Shown: piece after piece, positions 13,406 through 24,550 of the stretch
Layout: each line of letters begins with the position of its first letter
How positions within the stretch are numbered: position 1 is the first letter of the stretch
Origin: a virus
Length of the DNA: 37,171 nucleotides
Strand: one strand, 5' to 3'
IMG/VR virus record: IMGVR_UViG_3300046103_001182
Notes under the pieces: generated by a model
Seen by the model: only the letters and a program-made list of their open reading frames with translations
Told to the model about the DNA's origin: nothing
The model's database searches: none
Made by a program: the position numbers and the translations under genes

Positions 13406-13560
13406 TATTTAGACTCCTTAACTTCTATAGCTTTAAATTCAGAGCCTACGTTAGACTCCATGAAAGACATTACGACAGCCATGTCGTTTGTCATTAGCTC
13501 GTAGCTGTTAGCCGCTACAGCTCCTTTGTTTCCTACCAAATAAACCTTAACTGTTCCCAT
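13405..13560 (-). CDS. 51-aa micro-ORF (MGTVKVYLVGNKGAVAANSYELMTNDMAVVMSFMESNVGSEFKAIEVKESK)
   Basis: Hand translation. It fills the gap between two genes; its start overlaps the upstream stop by 14 nt and its TAA overlaps the RNR ATG (TAATG). It is below the ORF-track cutoff. Confidence 0.5.
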   Translation of the reverse strand: MGTVKVYLVGNKGAVAANSYELMTNDMAVVMSFMESNVGSEFKAIEVKESK

Positions 13561-13864
13561 TGTAGTTCTCCTTTAAAAGCTCTAAGTAATGTATGGCTTT
13601 GTCTAAGTCCTGTACCCCACCCTTGGACATATATCGGCAGATGTACTTTATAGCGTTACCCTCACAAAACCCTAAACTGTTTGCCATGATAAATTCTATC
13701 GGCTGTATGCTCATGTGTTTGTAGTGTTCACCACCTACCTGCACAGTGAGAGGGCTGTCCTCAGGCAACATGCTAACGTAATCTTCTAACGCTATTTCAG
13801 GGTCATACCACCTAGGGCCTACTTGCTCCTCGGGTCCTATCTCATTAAACTTTCTATGTCTCAT
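13547..13864 (-). CDS. DUF3310-family phage protein
   Basis: The signature GGEHYKH..IQPIEFI....GFCEGNAIKYICRY..KGG..DLDKAIHYLELL matches my recollection of the DUF3310 consensus. Confidence 0.75.
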   Translation of the reverse strand: MRHRKFNEIGPEEQVGPRWYDPEIALEDYVSMLPEDSPLTVQVGGEHYKHMSIQPIEFIMANSLGFCEGNAIKYICRYMSKGGVQDLDKAIHYLELLKENYNGNS

Positions 13865-15266: not shown

Positions 15267-16991
15267 CTAGTGTACGTCATACCATGTTAAGCCGATTTTG
15301 GCGTTTCCTTTCGTTGGGCACCTAAGATTAAAGTGTTCGCCTGCTGCTTCAAAGGCTTCCTCCATAATCTCAGCTAACCTTGGTGCTTGGTCCTCCCTAA
15401 CCTCTACGTTAATCTCATCGTGGACTACGGACACTTGATTAAAATCAAGACCCTCCTCCTTCGCTTTTGCATAGTACATCACCATGACCTGCTTCATGTA
15501 AACGGCCCCTGCTCCCTGTAGAAGCGTGTTGAGTGCAGCGTGTGCGCTCCTGACTTCTATCTGTCTACCGTCTAATCCTTTGAGGTAACCCTTGGCCGCT
15601 GCCTTTTCCACCCTGTCCCTGAGTGACTTGAGAGCTGGGAGGGAGTCCATGAACCGCTTTTTAGCAGCCGTTCCTGATGCTCTACCTTGTCCAAGAATGC
15701 TACCGATTTTAGCATCCCCCGCTCCGTACAGGAAAGCATAGATAAAAGTCTTCGCCTTATCGCGCGTAGCAATACCAGCCGCACGTTGATTAACTGAATG
15801 TACATCCGTAGCATCGTCCTTACTCCCTTGGTCTACTGTTTTAATGTATGTTTTGTCAGCCATGTAATGAGCTAACATTCTAAGCTCTAAAGCATCTGCG
15901 TCACACCCTACCAGCTTGTAACCCTTAGGCACCGTCCAGCACTGCCGCATCTCTGTACCAAAGGGTTTTCCTGGAGCAGTCACCTGTCCTAGGTTAGGCT
16001 TGCTGTGTGTCATGCGACCCGTTACAGCTCCAGAGGGGTCTACGTGACCGTGTACCCTGTCATTGGAGTCGGCAGCTTCTATCCATGACGCCGCCATAGC
16101 AATGCGCTTCTCTAGCATAAGGTACTCTGCTATCATCTGAGCCTCTGGTATACTAGAGCCCTCCAAAGCACCCTCGTCTACCACAGGCTGTCCTGTAGGC
16201 GTCTTAGACTTAGGCTCCCACCCGAAACGCACAAGGTACTCTCCGATCTGTTTCCTAGAACCTAGATTAAAGTGGGGGAACCTAATTTTAGTAAAACTCC
16301 CGCCAATATCGTCAATACTAAAACCACCAAGACCCACTCTACTAACCGTCCCGTCACACTTAACCTTCGGTACAACCAGCTTCTCCGCGCTCGCCATTGG
16401 TATAAACCTCTCATGTACAGCGTTCTCAACGTCATCTTTTCTCTCCCTTAACTTAGCTACAAGATCAAAACATTTCTTCATATCAAGCGTCCAGCCATGC
16501 TTAATTTGTTCGTCTATCACAGCACTAACCTGCTTCTCTAACAGCGCAGAGGGTTGCTTAAGCTCCTCCTTAACGACAGCGATAAGACGTTCCGTTACTT
16601 CGAGGTCTTGGACGCAGTAGGTTCCCATTTCTGGGGTAAACTTTGTCCAATCACTGTAGACCCCTTTTGGAAAACCAAGGGTTTGCCCCCATACCTTGAG
16701 TGAGTGCCCTCCAATGCGCCTAGGATTCGCTTCCCGTGACATAACAACGCTATCCCTAAGATGAACGTCACTAAAATCAATAGCCCACAAATCCCTAAGA
16801 ATAGGGTAGTCATATCTAAATCCGTTATGTGCATAAACGTGCGCTCCTTTGTGTTTATCTATGTAAGCCTGAAGGTCAGGCCCTGTCATCATAAGCTCAC
16901 CTTCTGGTTCACCAATGACCTTAACACCGCAACACCATATAGTGTCTGGCTTAAGCCCGTTCGTTTCTATGTCTAAAATTAACTCAAGCAC
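15267..16991 (-). CDS. Family A DNA polymerase with 3'-5' exonuclease domain (T7 gp5-like)
   Basis: Exo motifs DIETNGL, HNGFRYDYPIL, YCVQDLEV. Pol motif A DADALELRMLAH, motif B RDKAKTFIYAFLYGAG, motif C VHDEI. The start is GTG at 16991, overlapping the HNH stop. Confidence 0.95.
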   Translation of the reverse strand: MLELILDIETNGLKPDTIWCCGVKVIGEPEGELMMTGPDLQAYIDKHKGAHVYAHNGFRYDYPILRDLWAIDFSDVHLRDSVVMSREANPRRIGGHSLKVWGQTLGFPKGVYSDWTKFTPEMGTYCVQDLEVTERLIAVVKEELKQPSALLEKQVSAVIDEQIKHGWTLDMKKCFDLVAKLRERKDDVENAVHERFIPMASAEKLVVPKVKCDGTVSRVGLGGFSIDDIGGSFTKIRFPHFNLGSRKQIGEYLVRFGWEPKSKTPTGQPVVDEGALEGSSIPEAQMIAEYLMLEKRIAMAASWIEAADSNDRVHGHVDPSGAVTGRMTHSKPNLGQVTAPGKPFGTEMRQCWTVPKGYKLVGCDADALELRMLAHYMADKTYIKTVDQGSKDDATDVHSVNQRAAGIATRDKAKTFIYAFLYGAGDAKIGSILGQGRASGTAAKKRFMDSLPALKSLRDRVEKAAAKGYLKGLDGRQIEVRSAHAALNTLLQGAGAVYMKQVMVMYYAKAKEEGLDFNQVSVVHDEINVEVREDQAPRLAEIMEEAFEAAGEHFNLRCPTKGNAKIGLTWYDVH

Positions 16992-17352
16992 TATGGCACC
17001 TCGGGTGTGTTTTTACTGCGTGACAATTGGAGCAAAGTACCTGACACTTTGCCATTTCTTTTTCTAGGGTTGACCACTTAGCCCCAAGCCTTATCAGCGC
17101 AGAAACACAGTTTAACTTATTAGCTGGGTCAACGTGGTCATAATGTAGCGCGTGAGAGTGCGCGTTATACCCACAATGAGCGCACCCCGCCTCTAGCTTC
17201 ATAAGCCCTACCTTCTTATAAAGGGCTTTCCTCCCAGCATTCGCGCATCCACGACAAAAACTCTGCTTTCCGTCTTTGTTCTTACCGTTCTTGGTGTAAG
17301 AATCTAGGGACTTCCATTCTTTACACGTACTACACCGTTTAGTATCTGTCAC
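16984..17352 (-). CDS. HNH homing-type endonuclease with N-terminal zinc finger
   Basis: CSTC...CRGC plus HYDHVDPANK...CSNCHAVKTH. The GTG start has AGAGG 6 nt upstream. Confidence 0.8.
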   Translation of the reverse strand: MTDTKRCSTCKEWKSLDSYTKNGKNKDGKQSFCRGCANAGRKALYKKVGLMKLEAGCAHCGYNAHSHALHYDHVDPANKLNCVSALIRLGAKWSTLEKEMAKCQVLCSNCHAVKTHPRCHSA

Positions 17353-21613: not shown

Positions 21614-21813
21614 CTTAATCCCCTTATAAGTTTCTCGTGTTGAACGGCTCTCTCGTGCAGCTCCTCAGCTATAAGCATGTGGTTTTCTGCGGAGGTTATA
21701 GTCCAACTGAGTAATCTCCGCGTTCCTCCCGCGCTTACAACTTTATTTATGTCATTTTGGAGAGCCTGAAGCAGCTCGTCTGCTGACATTTTTTGTAATT
21801 CCTTTTTACTCAT
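21610..21813 (-). CDS. Hypothetical protein
   Basis: 67-aa ORF, coupled at both ends. Confidence 0.6.
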   Translation of the reverse strand: MSKKELQKMSADELLQALQNDINKVVSAGGTRRLLSWTITSAENHMLIAEELHERAVQHEKLIRGLR

Positions 21814-21967
21814 CTATCTGTACTCCTTTGTGCTTACGATGCCCACGCTTGGACTTCGCTTTACGGTCCTCGAAAGTATGCGCTAGGTTAAACGTCCTAG
21901 CATGTTTAGCTACAGGGTTTCCCCTAGCGGCTATCTGTTTATCCTGTACTACTCGCTTGTGTCCCAT
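21806..21967 (-). CDS. 53-aa highly basic micro-protein, ArfA-like tail (MGHKRVVQDKQIAARGNPVAKHARTFNLAHTFEDRKAKSKRGHRKHKGVQIDE)
   Basis: Hand translation, checked codon by codon. It fills the 21972-21814 gap and its stop overlaps the next ATG by 8 nt. The pattern NPVA....F......DRKAKSKRGHRKHK recalls ArfA (..[21 protein letters not shown]). Confidence 0.55.
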   Translation of the reverse strand: MGHKRVVQDKQIAARGNPVAKHARTFNLAHTFEDRKAKSKRGHRKHKGVQIDE

Positions 21968-21972
21968 CGTCC

Positions 21973-22752
21973 CTACGCCCTCATGCGGTCATCATAAAAC
22001 AAGCGCATTGTATCATGCGCATCATCGTCTTTGCTGTGCAATAGTGGTGAATTTGCCAGATAAATAGCCCTTGACATTCCTCTGGGCGTCAGGCTGCGAA
22101 TGTACTTTGTACGCGCTGACTTCCCGCCTAGCATCTTGTGGCATGGGTTGACCTCACCCTCTGGCCGCTTGTCAATCAGGTAGTGGTGCGGCATCTCGGC
22201 ACCGTTAGAACACCATAGCCCTGTTTTTTTGTTATATATGTCCCGTGGCGGGTAATACTCTGGAAACTCTGGGTGTACGTCATCCACAGGTAACAAACGC
22301 TGGAATTCGTAGGGCTGCACGTACCCTGTGGGCCTCTTCCACGTTGTGGCTAGTACACTCACGGGATTTTCTACGATAGACGGACACGGCCAGCACTCTA
22401 CAAGCCGCGCTAGGGCTACCGCTTCCGTTTGAAAATCAGGGTTGTCTCTACGCTTACGCGCAAAATGAGCCGCACCCGAGACGGCCAAATCTGTGCATGG
22501 CGCGAATGACAGTATAAACGAGGGCGCAGGTAGCATTAAACCCGCTAGGGCGTTGTCTACGCGCTTATCTGCGTCACGCCCTACTAGGTCTACGTCTAGC
22601 CGACTATGACGCGGGTGCGTCCATTGTGGGCGCTCTGTGTCGCTGTGGTCTGTGTCGCTATGGTCTACACTAACACAGTGGTATCTACCATCGTCTAGCC
22701 ACGGTTGTACTGCGTAGCGTGAGCTATTAAACAGAAATAATATTGTTTTCAT
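21973..22752 (-). CDS. C5-cytosine-methyltransferase-fold protein with divergent motif I
   Basis: Motif IV-like SFAPCTDLAVSGA is followed 42 aa later by motif VI-like SIVENPVSVL, then a C-terminal RSLTPRGMSRAIYLAN. The N-terminal beta-strand TILFLFNSSRY lacks FxGxG. The start is placed at MKT (22752), coupled ATGA to the micro-ORF. Confidence 0.55.
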   Translation of the reverse strand: MKTILFLFNSSRYAVQPWLDDGRYHCVSVDHSDTDHSDTERPQWTHPRHSRLDVDLVGRDADKRVDNALAGLMLPAPSFILSFAPCTDLAVSGAAHFARKRRDNPDFQTEAVALARLVECWPCPSIVENPVSVLATTWKRPTGYVQPYEFQRLLPVDDVHPEFPEYYPPRDIYNKKTGLWCSNGAEMPHHYLIDKRPEGEVNPCHKMLGGKSARTKYIRSLTPRGMSRAIYLANSPLLHSKDDDAHDTMRLFYDDRMRA

Positions 22753-22841
22753 AGTAAACCTAATCCCCATCCGAATATTAAACCCATAGCCACACCCGTA
22801 CAGCATAGCAGTAAAAAGCCAGTTATATCATTATTACTCAT
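22749..22841 (-). CDS. 30-aa hydrophobic micro-peptide (MSNNDITGFLLLCCTGVAMGLIFGWGLGLL)
   Basis: Hand translation, checked base by base. The ATG lies inside the last codons of 22834..23139 and its TGA overlaps the ATG at 22752. Confidence 0.5.
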   Translation of the reverse strand: MSNNDITGFLLLCCTGVAMGLIFGWGLGLL

Positions 22842-23139
22842 TTCTCAATCCTCTTTTAATCACTATCCTAGTATCGGAAATGCCCACAAGGGCGCGAGTA
22901 CACTCACCCGCCCACACTGTTACCTTTTGGCTGGTGGTATCTATTAGGCCGCCATGTTTACCCGCTGTCACCTTGCGTAGTTTGCCAGTGGTGGCTTTTG
23001 CGTACACTATCCATTCACCCTCTATGGTAGTAGTAAACGTGTCACCACCCTGCCACCCGTGTGACGCTAGGCCTTGAACCCATACCCTATGGCCCTTTTT
23101 AGTGGGCGTGATTGTAGTGTTAAATATTTTCTGTTTCAT
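22834..23139 (-). CDS. Hypothetical small beta-rich protein
   Basis: 101-aa ORF with ATGA overlap with the upstream gene. Confidence 0.6.
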   Translation of the reverse strand: MKQKIFNTTITPTKKGHRVWVQGLASHGWQGGDTFTTTIEGEWIVYAKATTGKLRKVTAGKHGGLIDTTSQKVTVWAGECTRALVGISDTRIVIKRGLRNE

Positions 23140-23522
23140 ACTGATACCCTCACTTGTCTGTTTAGCAGTAGTGCTTTACGTGTGCCAGTGTACGCGCTCT
23201 CGTCTGACACGTATACAAAAGATTCATACTTATACGGATTGTAAGTTATCGGTACCATGTGTTCTGTTATAGGCGTATTAAACGGCACCCAATACCCCAC
23301 TAGACCCGCATGGACATTCTTTTTACGCTCACGTAGTACGCGCTCACGACCCGCTTGTGATACTCTAGGGGATACGTCCTGTAATACCACGCCACGCTTG
23401 TGTGCAATCACACGGCCCTTGTGTGGGCCGTCTAGCGCCCTGACAGACCATAGCTTACGATGTAAGTTAAAATACACGTACACGCGCTGTCCTGTAGGTT
23501 TCCCATCTCTTTTGTTTTTCAT
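23136..23522 (-). CDS. Conserved-looking basic phage protein, function unknown
   Basis: 128-aa ORF. The pattern VYFNLHRKLWSV...VHAGLVG looks familiar from other phages, but I cannot name a family. Confidence 0.6.
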   Translation of the reverse strand: MKNKRDGKPTGQRVYVYFNLHRKLWSVRALDGPHKGRVIAHKRGVVLQDVSPRVSQAGRERVLRERKKNVHAGLVGYWVPFNTPITEHMVPITYNPYKYESFVYVSDESAYTGTRKALLLNRQVRVSV

Positions 23523-23525
23523 ATC

Positions 23526-24380
23526 CTAACCCCTTGCGATTATGTTATTGAATTCCGCTACGTTTTGAGCCGTTACAAAAAAAGACTGATAACCCTCACC
23601 CGCGCGTTGCGTCTTATTACTACCTTTACGCTTTAAGATTCCTATGGTACCGCTAGAATCCAACGGGCGTAAGTCTGTAGTGTCAAACGATACCGCGTCA
23701 CTAGGTACCTGTATATTATCGGACTGTAATCCCTTCGTATTGTACGCTACCGCTATTTTGTAACGCGATTGTACTGCTTTTTTTAGTGCTGCTTTGCTTT
23801 GCACACTGTGCATACTAGCAGAAAATGTTAGGTCGTAATTGTCCAGTGTATTTTTACGGACACGCGACAATATTTTTGTATAGTCGTAAAATTGTGATTG
23901 TGGGCGCTCTGCTATAGTGTCAGAAAAGTCTAGGTCGCTAGTGCCGTTTAAACGAAACAGAGCGGGTATACCAGTTTTAACGGCTTTGCGCTCTGCTTTG
24001 TCTATATCTGCTTTTAACTGTAATACAAAGTAATCGTAGCGCATTAAATACCAGATGGTACGCTTTGTGGCGGCCCTGTCCGCGTTACCCTCTGCTATAC
24101 CTAATTGACCACTAGACTTTAAACAGGGCGCTTTACATCCACCTGCCACTGCCATAGCGCAAATGGTATCTAAAGCTACCTTGTCCGCTGGCTGCATATA
24201 AACAATATAGGTATCACGTTTGTCTGGTACACCCTCCGCGTTACCCTTCTCTACTTTTGTACTGGTACCTAAAATACGCATAGGTGTATTAAGATACTCT
24301 ATATTACTGTACGCCCACAATTTAGCCTTATTAGTGAGTAGCTTTGTATACATTATGTCTTTGCGAGTAATAGATAACAT
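23526..24380 (-). CDS. Cys-triad protein, possibly GP88-family-like, function unknown
   Basis: CAMAVAGGCKAPC (C-x7-C-x3-C) is followed by a basic helical segment. The start is placed at ATG 24380 (MLSITRK, AGGGA upstream) because a promoter lies inside the longer track ORF. Confidence 0.6.
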   Translation of the reverse strand: MLSITRKDIMYTKLLTNKAKLWAYSNIEYLNTPMRILGTSTKVEKGNAEGVPDKRDTYIVYMQPADKVALDTICAMAVAGGCKAPCLKSSGQLGIAEGNADRAATKRTIWYLMRYDYFVLQLKADIDKAERKAVKTGIPALFRLNGTSDLDFSDTIAERPQSQFYDYTKILSRVRKNTLDNYDLTFSASMHSVQSKAALKKAVQSRYKIAVAYNTKGLQSDNIQVPSDAVSFDTTDLRPLDSSGTIGILKRKGSNKTQRAGEGYQSFFVTAQNVAEFNNIIARG

Positions 24381-24417
24381 ACTGTTTAATCCCTGTGGTT
24401 TTTGTGTGTGTCCTGTA

Positions 24418-24445
24418 ATTATAGGGCCATATTGTATTATGTCTA
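24418..24445 (-). promoter_or_regulatory. Leftward sigma70 promoter PL (TAGACA-16-TATAAT)
   Basis: On the minus strand the -35 is TAGACA (24445-24440) and the -10 is TATAAT (24423-24418), about 40 nt upstream of ATG 24380. Confidence 0.65.
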
Positions 24446-24550
24446 TGGTAATATTAACATTTAAATAGCTGTACTTTATACGGCACCTTATGCTAGGGAA
24501 TATATACAACCTTCATTCTATTATGCGTGCGCGTGCGAATAGCACAATAC

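Follow-up and report, generated by a model that had tools for sequence, protein, structure and literature searches.

A minus-strand gene in the virus record IMGVR_UViG_3300046103_001182 (IMG/VR) encodes a 259-aa protein that adds a divergent member to a family already known but little characterised, whose members are compact phage proteins resembling C5-cytosine methyltransferases. The window analyzed here, which is the whole 37,171-bp stretch of DNA in that record (46% GC), approaches a whole podovirus genome. We consider it likely that the protein is an orphan DNA cytosine-C5 methyltransferase that depends on S-adenosylmethionine (SAM), has a cofactor loop free of glycine, and probably serves anti-restriction; its use of SAM, its DNA substrate, its 5-methylcytosine (5mC) product and its role in anti-restriction are what we infer from the evidence below. 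A preliminary description of the sequence had proposed an enzyme with a C5-methyltransferase fold that keeps the catalytic Pro-Cys and an ENV-like Glu and lacks the F-x-G-x-G SAM loop. This view is supported by a predicted fold closest to DNMT3 and DNMT1, by motifs that lie in register with those of canonical enzymes, and by a relative for which 5mC activity has been reported. For the window, the result is a confident gene call with a probable function, and no new system.

The protein matches PHROG 757, annotated as "DNA methyltransferase", at E 1.6e-53, with residues 1-246 aligned to profile positions 14-230 of 247. Members of this family are 210-260 aa long and chiefly phage-borne, and the family is without a Pfam or NCBIfam model. 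Searching 1.84 billion cluster representatives with a profile (E up to 1e-3) recovered at least 1,594 clusters, formed at 50% identity. By tblastn, relatives were found in 1,488 sequenced phages, each at less than 60% identity, whose hosts are mostly Escherichia, Klebsiella and Salmonella. These relatives are labelled Dcm-like C5 methyltransferase, DNA methyltransferase or hypothetical protein, with C5 or DNA methylases making up most of the labels. The nearest relatives (50-91% identity) come from metagenomes and from IMG/VR contigs of 35-40 kb, and megablast of the region against sequenced phages gave no match. No Pfam domain is on record for the homologs; every M.HhaI-like control protein has PF00145. 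The family is unseen by the PF00145 and NCBIfam models, and because these models do not detect its members, phage methylome and anti-restriction surveys that are built on them will miss it.

Enzymatic activity has been reported for a relative of the window protein. Phage K42, 95% identical to KarlJaspers, carries a 711-bp dcm gene that triggers retron Ec86, and expression of this gene increased 5mC in the multicopy single-stranded DNA (msDNA) of Ec86 as measured by liquid chromatography-mass spectrometry (10.1101/2023.08.16.553469, preprint). The substrate was the DNA stem-loop of the retron msDNA, the effect needed a CCWGG site, and a C82A/E128A/K175A/K176A quadruple mutant was inactive (10.1101/2023.08.16.553469). 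The homolog in phage JLBYU26, encoded by a 711-bp frame and 39% identical to the window protein, has C82, E128, K175 and K176 at the same numbers as K42 Dcm. JLBYU26 is a Warwickvirus and presumably belongs to the same genus as KarlJaspers. Because this homolog shares both the catalytic residues and the numbering of K42 Dcm, the PHROG 757 family has a member with reported 5mC activity. Since retron Ec86 is triggered by family members, forecasts of how sensitive a phage is to this defence depend on knowing the active variants.

The window protein and the K42/KarlJaspers-type Dcm of Drexlerviridae have in common PHROG 757 membership, size class, the order of conserved blocks, the C-terminal RSLTPRG motif, and an orphan gene beside replication genes. 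Their catalytic residues also correspond (C86, E128, K175 and K176 in the window protein; C82, E128, K175 and K176 in K42 Dcm). However, the window protein is only ~39-46% identical to the protein of any isolated phage, and the two differ at several sites: motif I reads F-N-S-S-R rather than F-D-G-S-G, the end of beta-2 is S-V-D rather than C-F-N, and motif IV has SFAPC rather than AFPPC. The carriers differ as well, being a ~37 kb aquatic podovirus for the window gene and an enterobacterial siphovirus for the K42-type Dcm.

Conservation was assessed across 79 diverse representatives of PHROG 757-family clusters, and in two sets of close relatives. Branch A (28 unique sequences) comprises enterobacterial siphophages, including the K42 type, and has S-L-F-D-G-S-G at motif I, C-F-N at the end of beta-2 and AFPPC at the nucleophile. 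Branch B (137 unique sequences) comprises the window protein and aquatic contigs, with h-L-F-N-[SHNT]-S-x, S-V-D and SFAPC at the same sites. Among the representatives, P85-C86-T87, E128 and an F, Y or C at position 8 are kept in 79/79, D30 and P130 in 78/79 each, and N129 and a Ser or Thr at position 11 in 75/79 each. R219, S220, T222, P223 and G225 are each conserved at 90% or more, N234 is conserved at 99-100% in both branches, and within branch B D55 and L56 reach 96% and 99%. The window protein carries all family-invariant residues (P-C-T, E-N-P, K175, W180 and R-S-x-T-P-x-G), agrees through its LFLFNSSR with the motif I consensus of the family, h-L-[FYC]-[DN]-x-[ST]-x, and has an acidic beta-2 end with D30. 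The N-terminal TILFLF strand, motif IV, motif VI and the C-terminal block listed in the preliminary description were each found, and their coordinates were checked by translation.

Two AlphaFold2 models of the protein were obtained, with a predicted local distance difference test score (pLDDT) of 84.9 and a predicted template modeling score (pTM) of 0.84 for one, and pLDDT 90.5 and pTM 0.88 for the other. In both, the chain opens with a Rossmann-type beta1-loop-helix-beta2 unit, Pro-Cys lies in the loop that follows beta4, and E-N-P closes beta5. When the better model was compared with the PDB by Foldseek, the top 10 matches were all catalytic domains of DNMT3A or DNMT3B (E 1e-5 to 3e-4), and DNMT1, DIM2 and MET1 came next. 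In BFVD, the matches beyond family members were C5-cytosine methyltransferases encoded by giant viruses, herpesviruses and phages. The solved structures nearest to the predicted fold are those of DNMT3A/3B and DNMT1, at TM scores of only 0.38-0.49.

Alignment with hhalign places motifs I, III, IV, VI and IX in register with E. coli Dcm and M.HhaI. The paired segments (family versus canonical) are sLfD-TG versus DLFAGIGG in motif I, V-D55-L versus G-D-I in motif III, FAPCTDLAVSG versus FPCQAFSISG in motif IV, and VENPVS versus MENVKN in motif VI; in motif IX, IRSLTPRGMSRAI is paired with PRRLTPRECARLM of Dcm. The window protein may adopt the class I methyltransferase fold of the canonical PF00145 enzymes (M.HhaI, E. 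coli Dcm, DNMT1/3), and it shares with them, in the same order, hhhF in motif I, D-hydrophobic in III, P-C in IV, E-N-x in VI and R-x-L-T-P-R in IX. The mechanism of covalent catalysis is presumably common to both. In contrast to the canonical P-C-Q and E-N-V, the window protein has P-C-T and E-N-P; motif VIII (Q-x-R-x-R) is absent, with Y-N-K-K-T-G-L-W in its place; and there is no separate target-recognition domain, only ~40 residues separating YNKKTGLW from RSLTPRG. The protein is ~100 residues shorter than canonical enzymes.

The motif I region departs from the canonical F-x-G-x-G. The preliminary description had read this position as FNSSRY, and it is indeed F-N-S-S-R, with zero glycine; in the AlphaFold2 models, the loop spans residues 8-11, between a strand at 2-7 and a helix at 12-21, with pLDDT 93-96. 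This loop is not peculiar to the window protein and recurs as a trait throughout a very large family. Glycine occupies the first F-x-G position in 1/79 representatives and the second in 57/79, neither is present in 22/79, and the consensus across the family reads L-[FYC]-D-x-[TS]-G rather than F-x-G-x-G. Within branch B, N9 is found in 100% and S11 in 99% of sequences at an overall identity of ~55%, a degree of conservation that speaks for strong purifying selection on the local F-N-S-S-x loop. Position 12 has undergone at least 17 changes between Gly and non-Gly (Fitch parsimony; neighbour-joining tree from which the loop columns were excluded). Gly12 is absent in 9/9 representatives with Asn9 versus 14/71 others (Fisher 3.5e-6, phylogeny being ignored), Ser6 occurs in 0/9 versus 53/71, and the N9/no-Gly12 state has about six independent origins. 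This pattern marks h-L-F-N-x-[ST]-x as a second loop state that is recurrent and, by the look of the alignments, selectively maintained. Because the loop glycine was lost repeatedly while the catalytic motifs stayed intact, the motif I glycines appear to be dispensable, and the PHROG 757 family conserves its catalytic core without needing the classic F-x-G-x-G loop. Degenerate glycine loops also occur in proven SAM-dependent DNA methyltransferases, such as M.TaqI. Across the family, the changes take the form of a coupled three-residue switch between S6-D9-G12 and h6-N9-x12. A reciprocal D/N swap, with D9...N30 in coliphages and N9...D30 here, was considered and dropped, as D9 with D30 is the family norm and the coliphage N30 is exceptional.

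Other positions of the predicted cofactor pocket are retained. From hhalign and class I methyltransferase architecture, F8 would correspond to HhaI F18, D30 to the motif II Glu, and D55-L56 to HhaI D60-I61; the ribose-binding role of D30 and its equivalence to the motif II Glu are presumed from the class I architecture. Because these adenosine-pocket positions (F8, D30 and D55-L56) are kept, we take as the simplest interpretation that SAM binding persists without the glycines. In the C-terminal block, N234 is a possible equivalent of HhaI N304, a correspondence that reflects the resemblance between LANSP and FGNSV and no significant alignment.

In the mechanism that we favor, Cys86 (P-C-T) would attack C6 of a flipped-out cytosine, Glu128 (E-N-P) would protonate N3, and SAM would donate the methyl group. 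SAM would sit in a Rossmann-type pocket in which the adenosine contacts are retained, with F8 stacking on the adenine, D30 binding the ribose and D55-L56 contacting the adenine. The F-N-S-S-x turn, which represents one of the two loop states that recur among family members, would substitute for the glycine loop. The probable benefit would be the shielding of phage DNA from host restriction. The fusion of one member to a D12 Dam-type adenine methyltransferase is in keeping with a role in DNA modification. Among the three options raised in the preliminary description (a highly divergent SAM methyltransferase, an enzyme that transfers a non-methyl group, and a pseudo-enzyme), the first is best supported.

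Several results weigh against this assignment. The protein resembles a C5-methyltransferase in motif order but is not recognized by PF00145, the profile against which the preliminary description had proposed to search it: neither the window protein nor four relatives gave a match at E up to 10. Searches of Pfam, NCBIfam and PDB sequences with phmmer and hmmsearch, using single sequences and two profiles, were likewise without a match even at E up to 10, and hhalign comparisons with E. coli Dcm or with a 92-sequence HhaI/Dcm profile were not significant (best pairwise E 0.038, probability 1.4% or less). With no significant match, a sequence-level link to canonical C5-methyltransferases was dropped, and the motif register alone is informative. 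The fold matches to DNMT3A/3B and DNMT1 have E 1e-5 to 1e-3 and probability 1.00, yet the TM scores are only 0.38-0.49, with root-mean-square deviations of 6-10 A. The sole tested relative sits in the lone canonical F-D-G-S-G branch (1/79 representatives), and the K42 Dcm result comes from in vivo work in a dcm+ strain that is described in a preprint. With the only tested member in one canonical-loop branch, the methyltransferase label of the other ~98% of clusters is thinly based biochemically.

A different cofactor or chemistry could also account for the loop, with attack at C6 kept and the donor being something other than SAM, as in the transfer of a group from carboxy-SAM, or with action that is cofactor-free. 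Canonical C5-methyltransferases can act without cofactor in vitro, either by deamination or by aldehyde addition that yields 5-hydroxymethylcytosine. Both motif I glycines are replaced in the window protein, and the N9/no-Gly12/non-Ser6 state recurs ~6 times, as if selected. The residues that are fixed within branches A and B yet differ between them (positions 6, 29, 30, 37, 82 and 127, and 9, 10 and 12 in the loop) lie almost all in the N-terminal cofactor half, and the catalytic and C-terminal half is alike in both branches. Because these branch-specific substitutions cluster in the cofactor half, a changed cofactor preference is a possibility that also counts against the SAM-dependent assignment. 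A natural precedent is CmoX of Synechococcus phage S-B43 (PDB 8YF3), a DNA cytosine C5-carboxymethyltransferase that uses carboxy-SAM from a co-encoded CmoA; its features are an SPPC motif, an Arg that replaces HhaI N304 and binds the carboxymethyl group, CmoA and often a CmoY ligase (PMC12783734). As a phage-encoded C5-methyltransferase homologue from an aquatic phage, CmoX is similar to the window protein, and it indicates that the fold can take a non-SAM cofactor. However, CmoX is a 372-aa, PF00145-type protein that matches E. coli Dcm at E 1.5e-10, unlike the compact window protein, and its SPPC motif and co-encoded genes are missing here. The window protein has SFAPC rather than SPPC at the nucleophile, and its only candidate for the position of the Arg is Asn234 in LANSP, whose equivalence is a matter of motif resemblance. 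Domain scans of the ORFs (open reading frames) of at least 100 aa in this near-genome-length window found no CmoA, no ligase such as CmoY, and no TET/JBP or glycosyltransferase that might use such a handle. A CmoX-like carboxy-SAM system and a TET-type hypermodification cassette were both rejected on these grounds. Moreover, the retained adenosine-binding residues F8, D30 and D55 point to a SAM-like nucleoside cofactor, and the glycine loss is scattered over the family tree beside glycine-bearing sisters, which resembles structural drift more than a new function. An altered cofactor or chemistry is unlikely on balance, and the transfer of a non-methyl group suggested earlier finds no support, as the SPPC signature of CmoX is absent and no cofactor-synthesis gene was found among the scanned ORFs. 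We attach a still lower probability to the proposal that the glycine-less state, fixed in the aquatic podovirus clade, marks a real cofactor change, either to a SAM analogue or to SAM-independent C5 chemistry (deamination or aldehyde addition). If it were true, these phages would install a modification other than 5mC, or would damage host DNA rather than protect their own.

The substrate of a C5-methyltransferase need not be double-stranded phage DNA: DNMT2 shows that this fold can act on tRNA, and the window protein might methylate RNA (tRNA, in a DNMT2-like manner) or only single-stranded or replicating DNA. The protein is very compact, with no recognizable target-recognition domain between motif VI and RSLTPRG, the sole demonstrated substrate of a relative is the stem-loop of retron msDNA, and DNMT2 chains are found among the PDB relatives of Dcm. 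Nevertheless, the substrate of K42 Dcm is DNA and its modification is CCWGG-dependent, a Dam-type DNA adenine methyltransferase is joined to one family member in a fusion protein, the nearest folds are DNMT3 and DNMT1 rather than DNMT2 or NSUN, and the gene is located in a DNA replication module, all of which make such a substrate rather improbable. The absence of the glycine loop would also be expected of a pseudo-enzyme that no longer binds a cofactor and acts instead in DNA binding, in regulation or as a decoy to host defences, and inactive methyltransferase-fold paralogues such as DNMT3L provide a precedent. This option, also raised in the preliminary description, is contradicted by Cys86, Glu128, K175 and RSxTPxG, which are invariant or nearly so over hundreds of clusters, and by N9 and S11 of the loop, which are 99-100% conserved at ~55% identity, because such conservation of catalytic residues is unexpected in pseudo-enzymes. 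We therefore regard a pseudo-enzyme as very improbable.

The coordinates of the gene, its motifs and nearby features are given in Table 1. In the list of ORFs, an extended version of the methyltransferase frame runs to an ATG at 22806. Homologs begin at MKTILFLF and align with the methyltransferase from residue 1-4, and a purine-rich GGGGATTAGG stretch lies just 5' of the 22752 ATG and not at the other start. Because the homologs begin there and GGGGATTAGG precedes only this ATG, 22752 appears to be the likelier start of the methyltransferase.

Table 1 Positions of the methyltransferase gene, its motifs and other features of the window.
Feature	Positions	Strand	Basis or remark
Methyltransferase coding sequence	21973-22752	-	259 aa + stop; ORF list, translation, PHROG 757 match
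Motif I equivalent LFLFNSSRY: end of beta-1 and glycine-free loop F8-N9-S10-S11-R12	22714-22740	-	AlphaFold2 models; alignment with Dcm DLFAGIGG
End of beta-2, VSVD; D30, presumed ribose-binding acidic residue (motif II equivalent)	22663-22674	-	Strand 24-30 in AlphaFold2 models
DHSDT-DHSDT, 15-nt tandem quasi-repeat in the loop after beta-2; holds conserved D35-H36	22636-22665 (codon register)	-	14/15 identical
DVDL; D55-L56 after beta-3, motif III equivalent (adenine-contacting Asp of M.HhaI GDI)	22585-22596	-	hhalign: V54-D55-L56 on HhaI G-D-I
Motif IV SFAPCTDLAVSGA; nucleophile Cys86	22471-22509	-	Aligned with Dcm/HhaI GFPCQxFSxxG; matches C82 of K42 Dcm
Motif VI IVENPVSVL; Glu128, 42 residues past Cys86	22351-22377	-	Aligned with ENV of Dcm/HhaI
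YNKKTGLW; K175/K176, proposed substrate-binding lysines	22213-22236	-	K175 invariant; K175/K176 mutated in K42 Dcm
C-terminal KYIRSLTPRGMSRAIYLANSP; motif IX-like RSLTPRG and possible motif X Asn N234	22045-22107	-	hhalign, conservation
Very basic 53-aa ORF	21806-21967	-	phrog_1359 (function unknown)
101-aa ORF	22834-23139	-	No Pfam/PHROG match
Phage_L5_gp82 homolog	23136-23522	-	PF25735, E 3.7e-40
GP88 homolog	23526-24509	-	PF17338, E 1.9e-23
HNH endonuclease ORF	16984-17352	-	phrog_2255
105-aa ORF	13547-13864	-	C-terminal ~60 residues match terminal domain of phage 'nucleotide kinase' families (phrog_236 + 17 others)
Region with few ORFs of at least 100 aa	34400-37171		ORFs overlap on both strands; no tRNA/Rfam match

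A minus-strand early/replication block carries the methyltransferase gene at its upstream end. This T7-like replication module encodes a Gp2.5-like SSB (a protein that binds single-stranded DNA), a primase-helicase, a family A polymerase (PolA), endonuclease I, a Cas4-like exonuclease and ribonucleotide reductase, and the structural and lysis side of the window encodes terminase, portal, major head protein, holin and endolysin. Because no restriction enzyme gene was identified in the window, the methyltransferase is considered an orphan. In related loci, it holds the same place ahead of the SSB, primase-helicase and PolA genes, while the GP88-like and L5 gp82-like neighbours vary. An obligatory partner among the GP88-like gene, the L5 gp82-like gene and the 101-aa ORF was rejected on account of their variable presence across these loci.

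The DHSDT-DHSDT segment had been described as an in-frame 15-bp duplication. The tandem repeat is present, and repeat finding places it in the register 22634-22663. In relatives, the equivalent ten codons read D-Y-[DS]-D-T-D-H-S-G-x without a gap, and the appearance of a repeat arises through ~3 point substitutions. The identity of at least 4/5 codons is not significant given the same peptide and local codon usage (P ~0.09). With no change in length relative to relatives and no significant codon identity, an insertion or slippage event was rejected, and the segment does not record a duplication. The repeat loop is the least confident part of the AlphaFold2 models (pLDDT ~61-64).

Some variation in the form of the family was also observed. 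In large myoviruses (rV5-like, Felix-like and T4-like; for example phiWec189, SSE121 and ECD7), tblastn covers only residues ~73-241; the matches are usually annotated as hypothetical, and such representatives keep a short, diverged N-terminal F-[DE]-x-T-G. The fusion to a D12 Dam-type N6-adenine methyltransferase (PF02086, E 2.5e-48) occurs in the 563-aa protein P0230, and a fold match in BFVD places the compact C5-methyltransferase-like domain inside a 1,397-aa protein annotated as helicase/UvrB (A0A6J5SE15_1) as well.

tRNA and Rfam scans of the window returned nothing, and the sparsely coding region at its end may be the genome end, a regulatory region or an early small-gene region. In the 105-aa ORF, the kinase part of the matching families is not visible. 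Directly downstream of the methyltransferase, the phrog_1359 ORF is better conserved than the methyltransferase in most of the related loci that carry it (~68-85% versus 55-83% identity). Upstream of the methyltransferase, the 101-aa ORF has a syntenic counterpart (37-49% identity) in most related loci. Both the gp82 and the GP88 families are named after mycobacteriophage L5, although the window derives from an aquatic podovirus. Between the primase-helicase and polymerase A genes, the HNH endonuclease ORF probably encodes a homing endonuclease; it overlaps the start of the polymerase gene.

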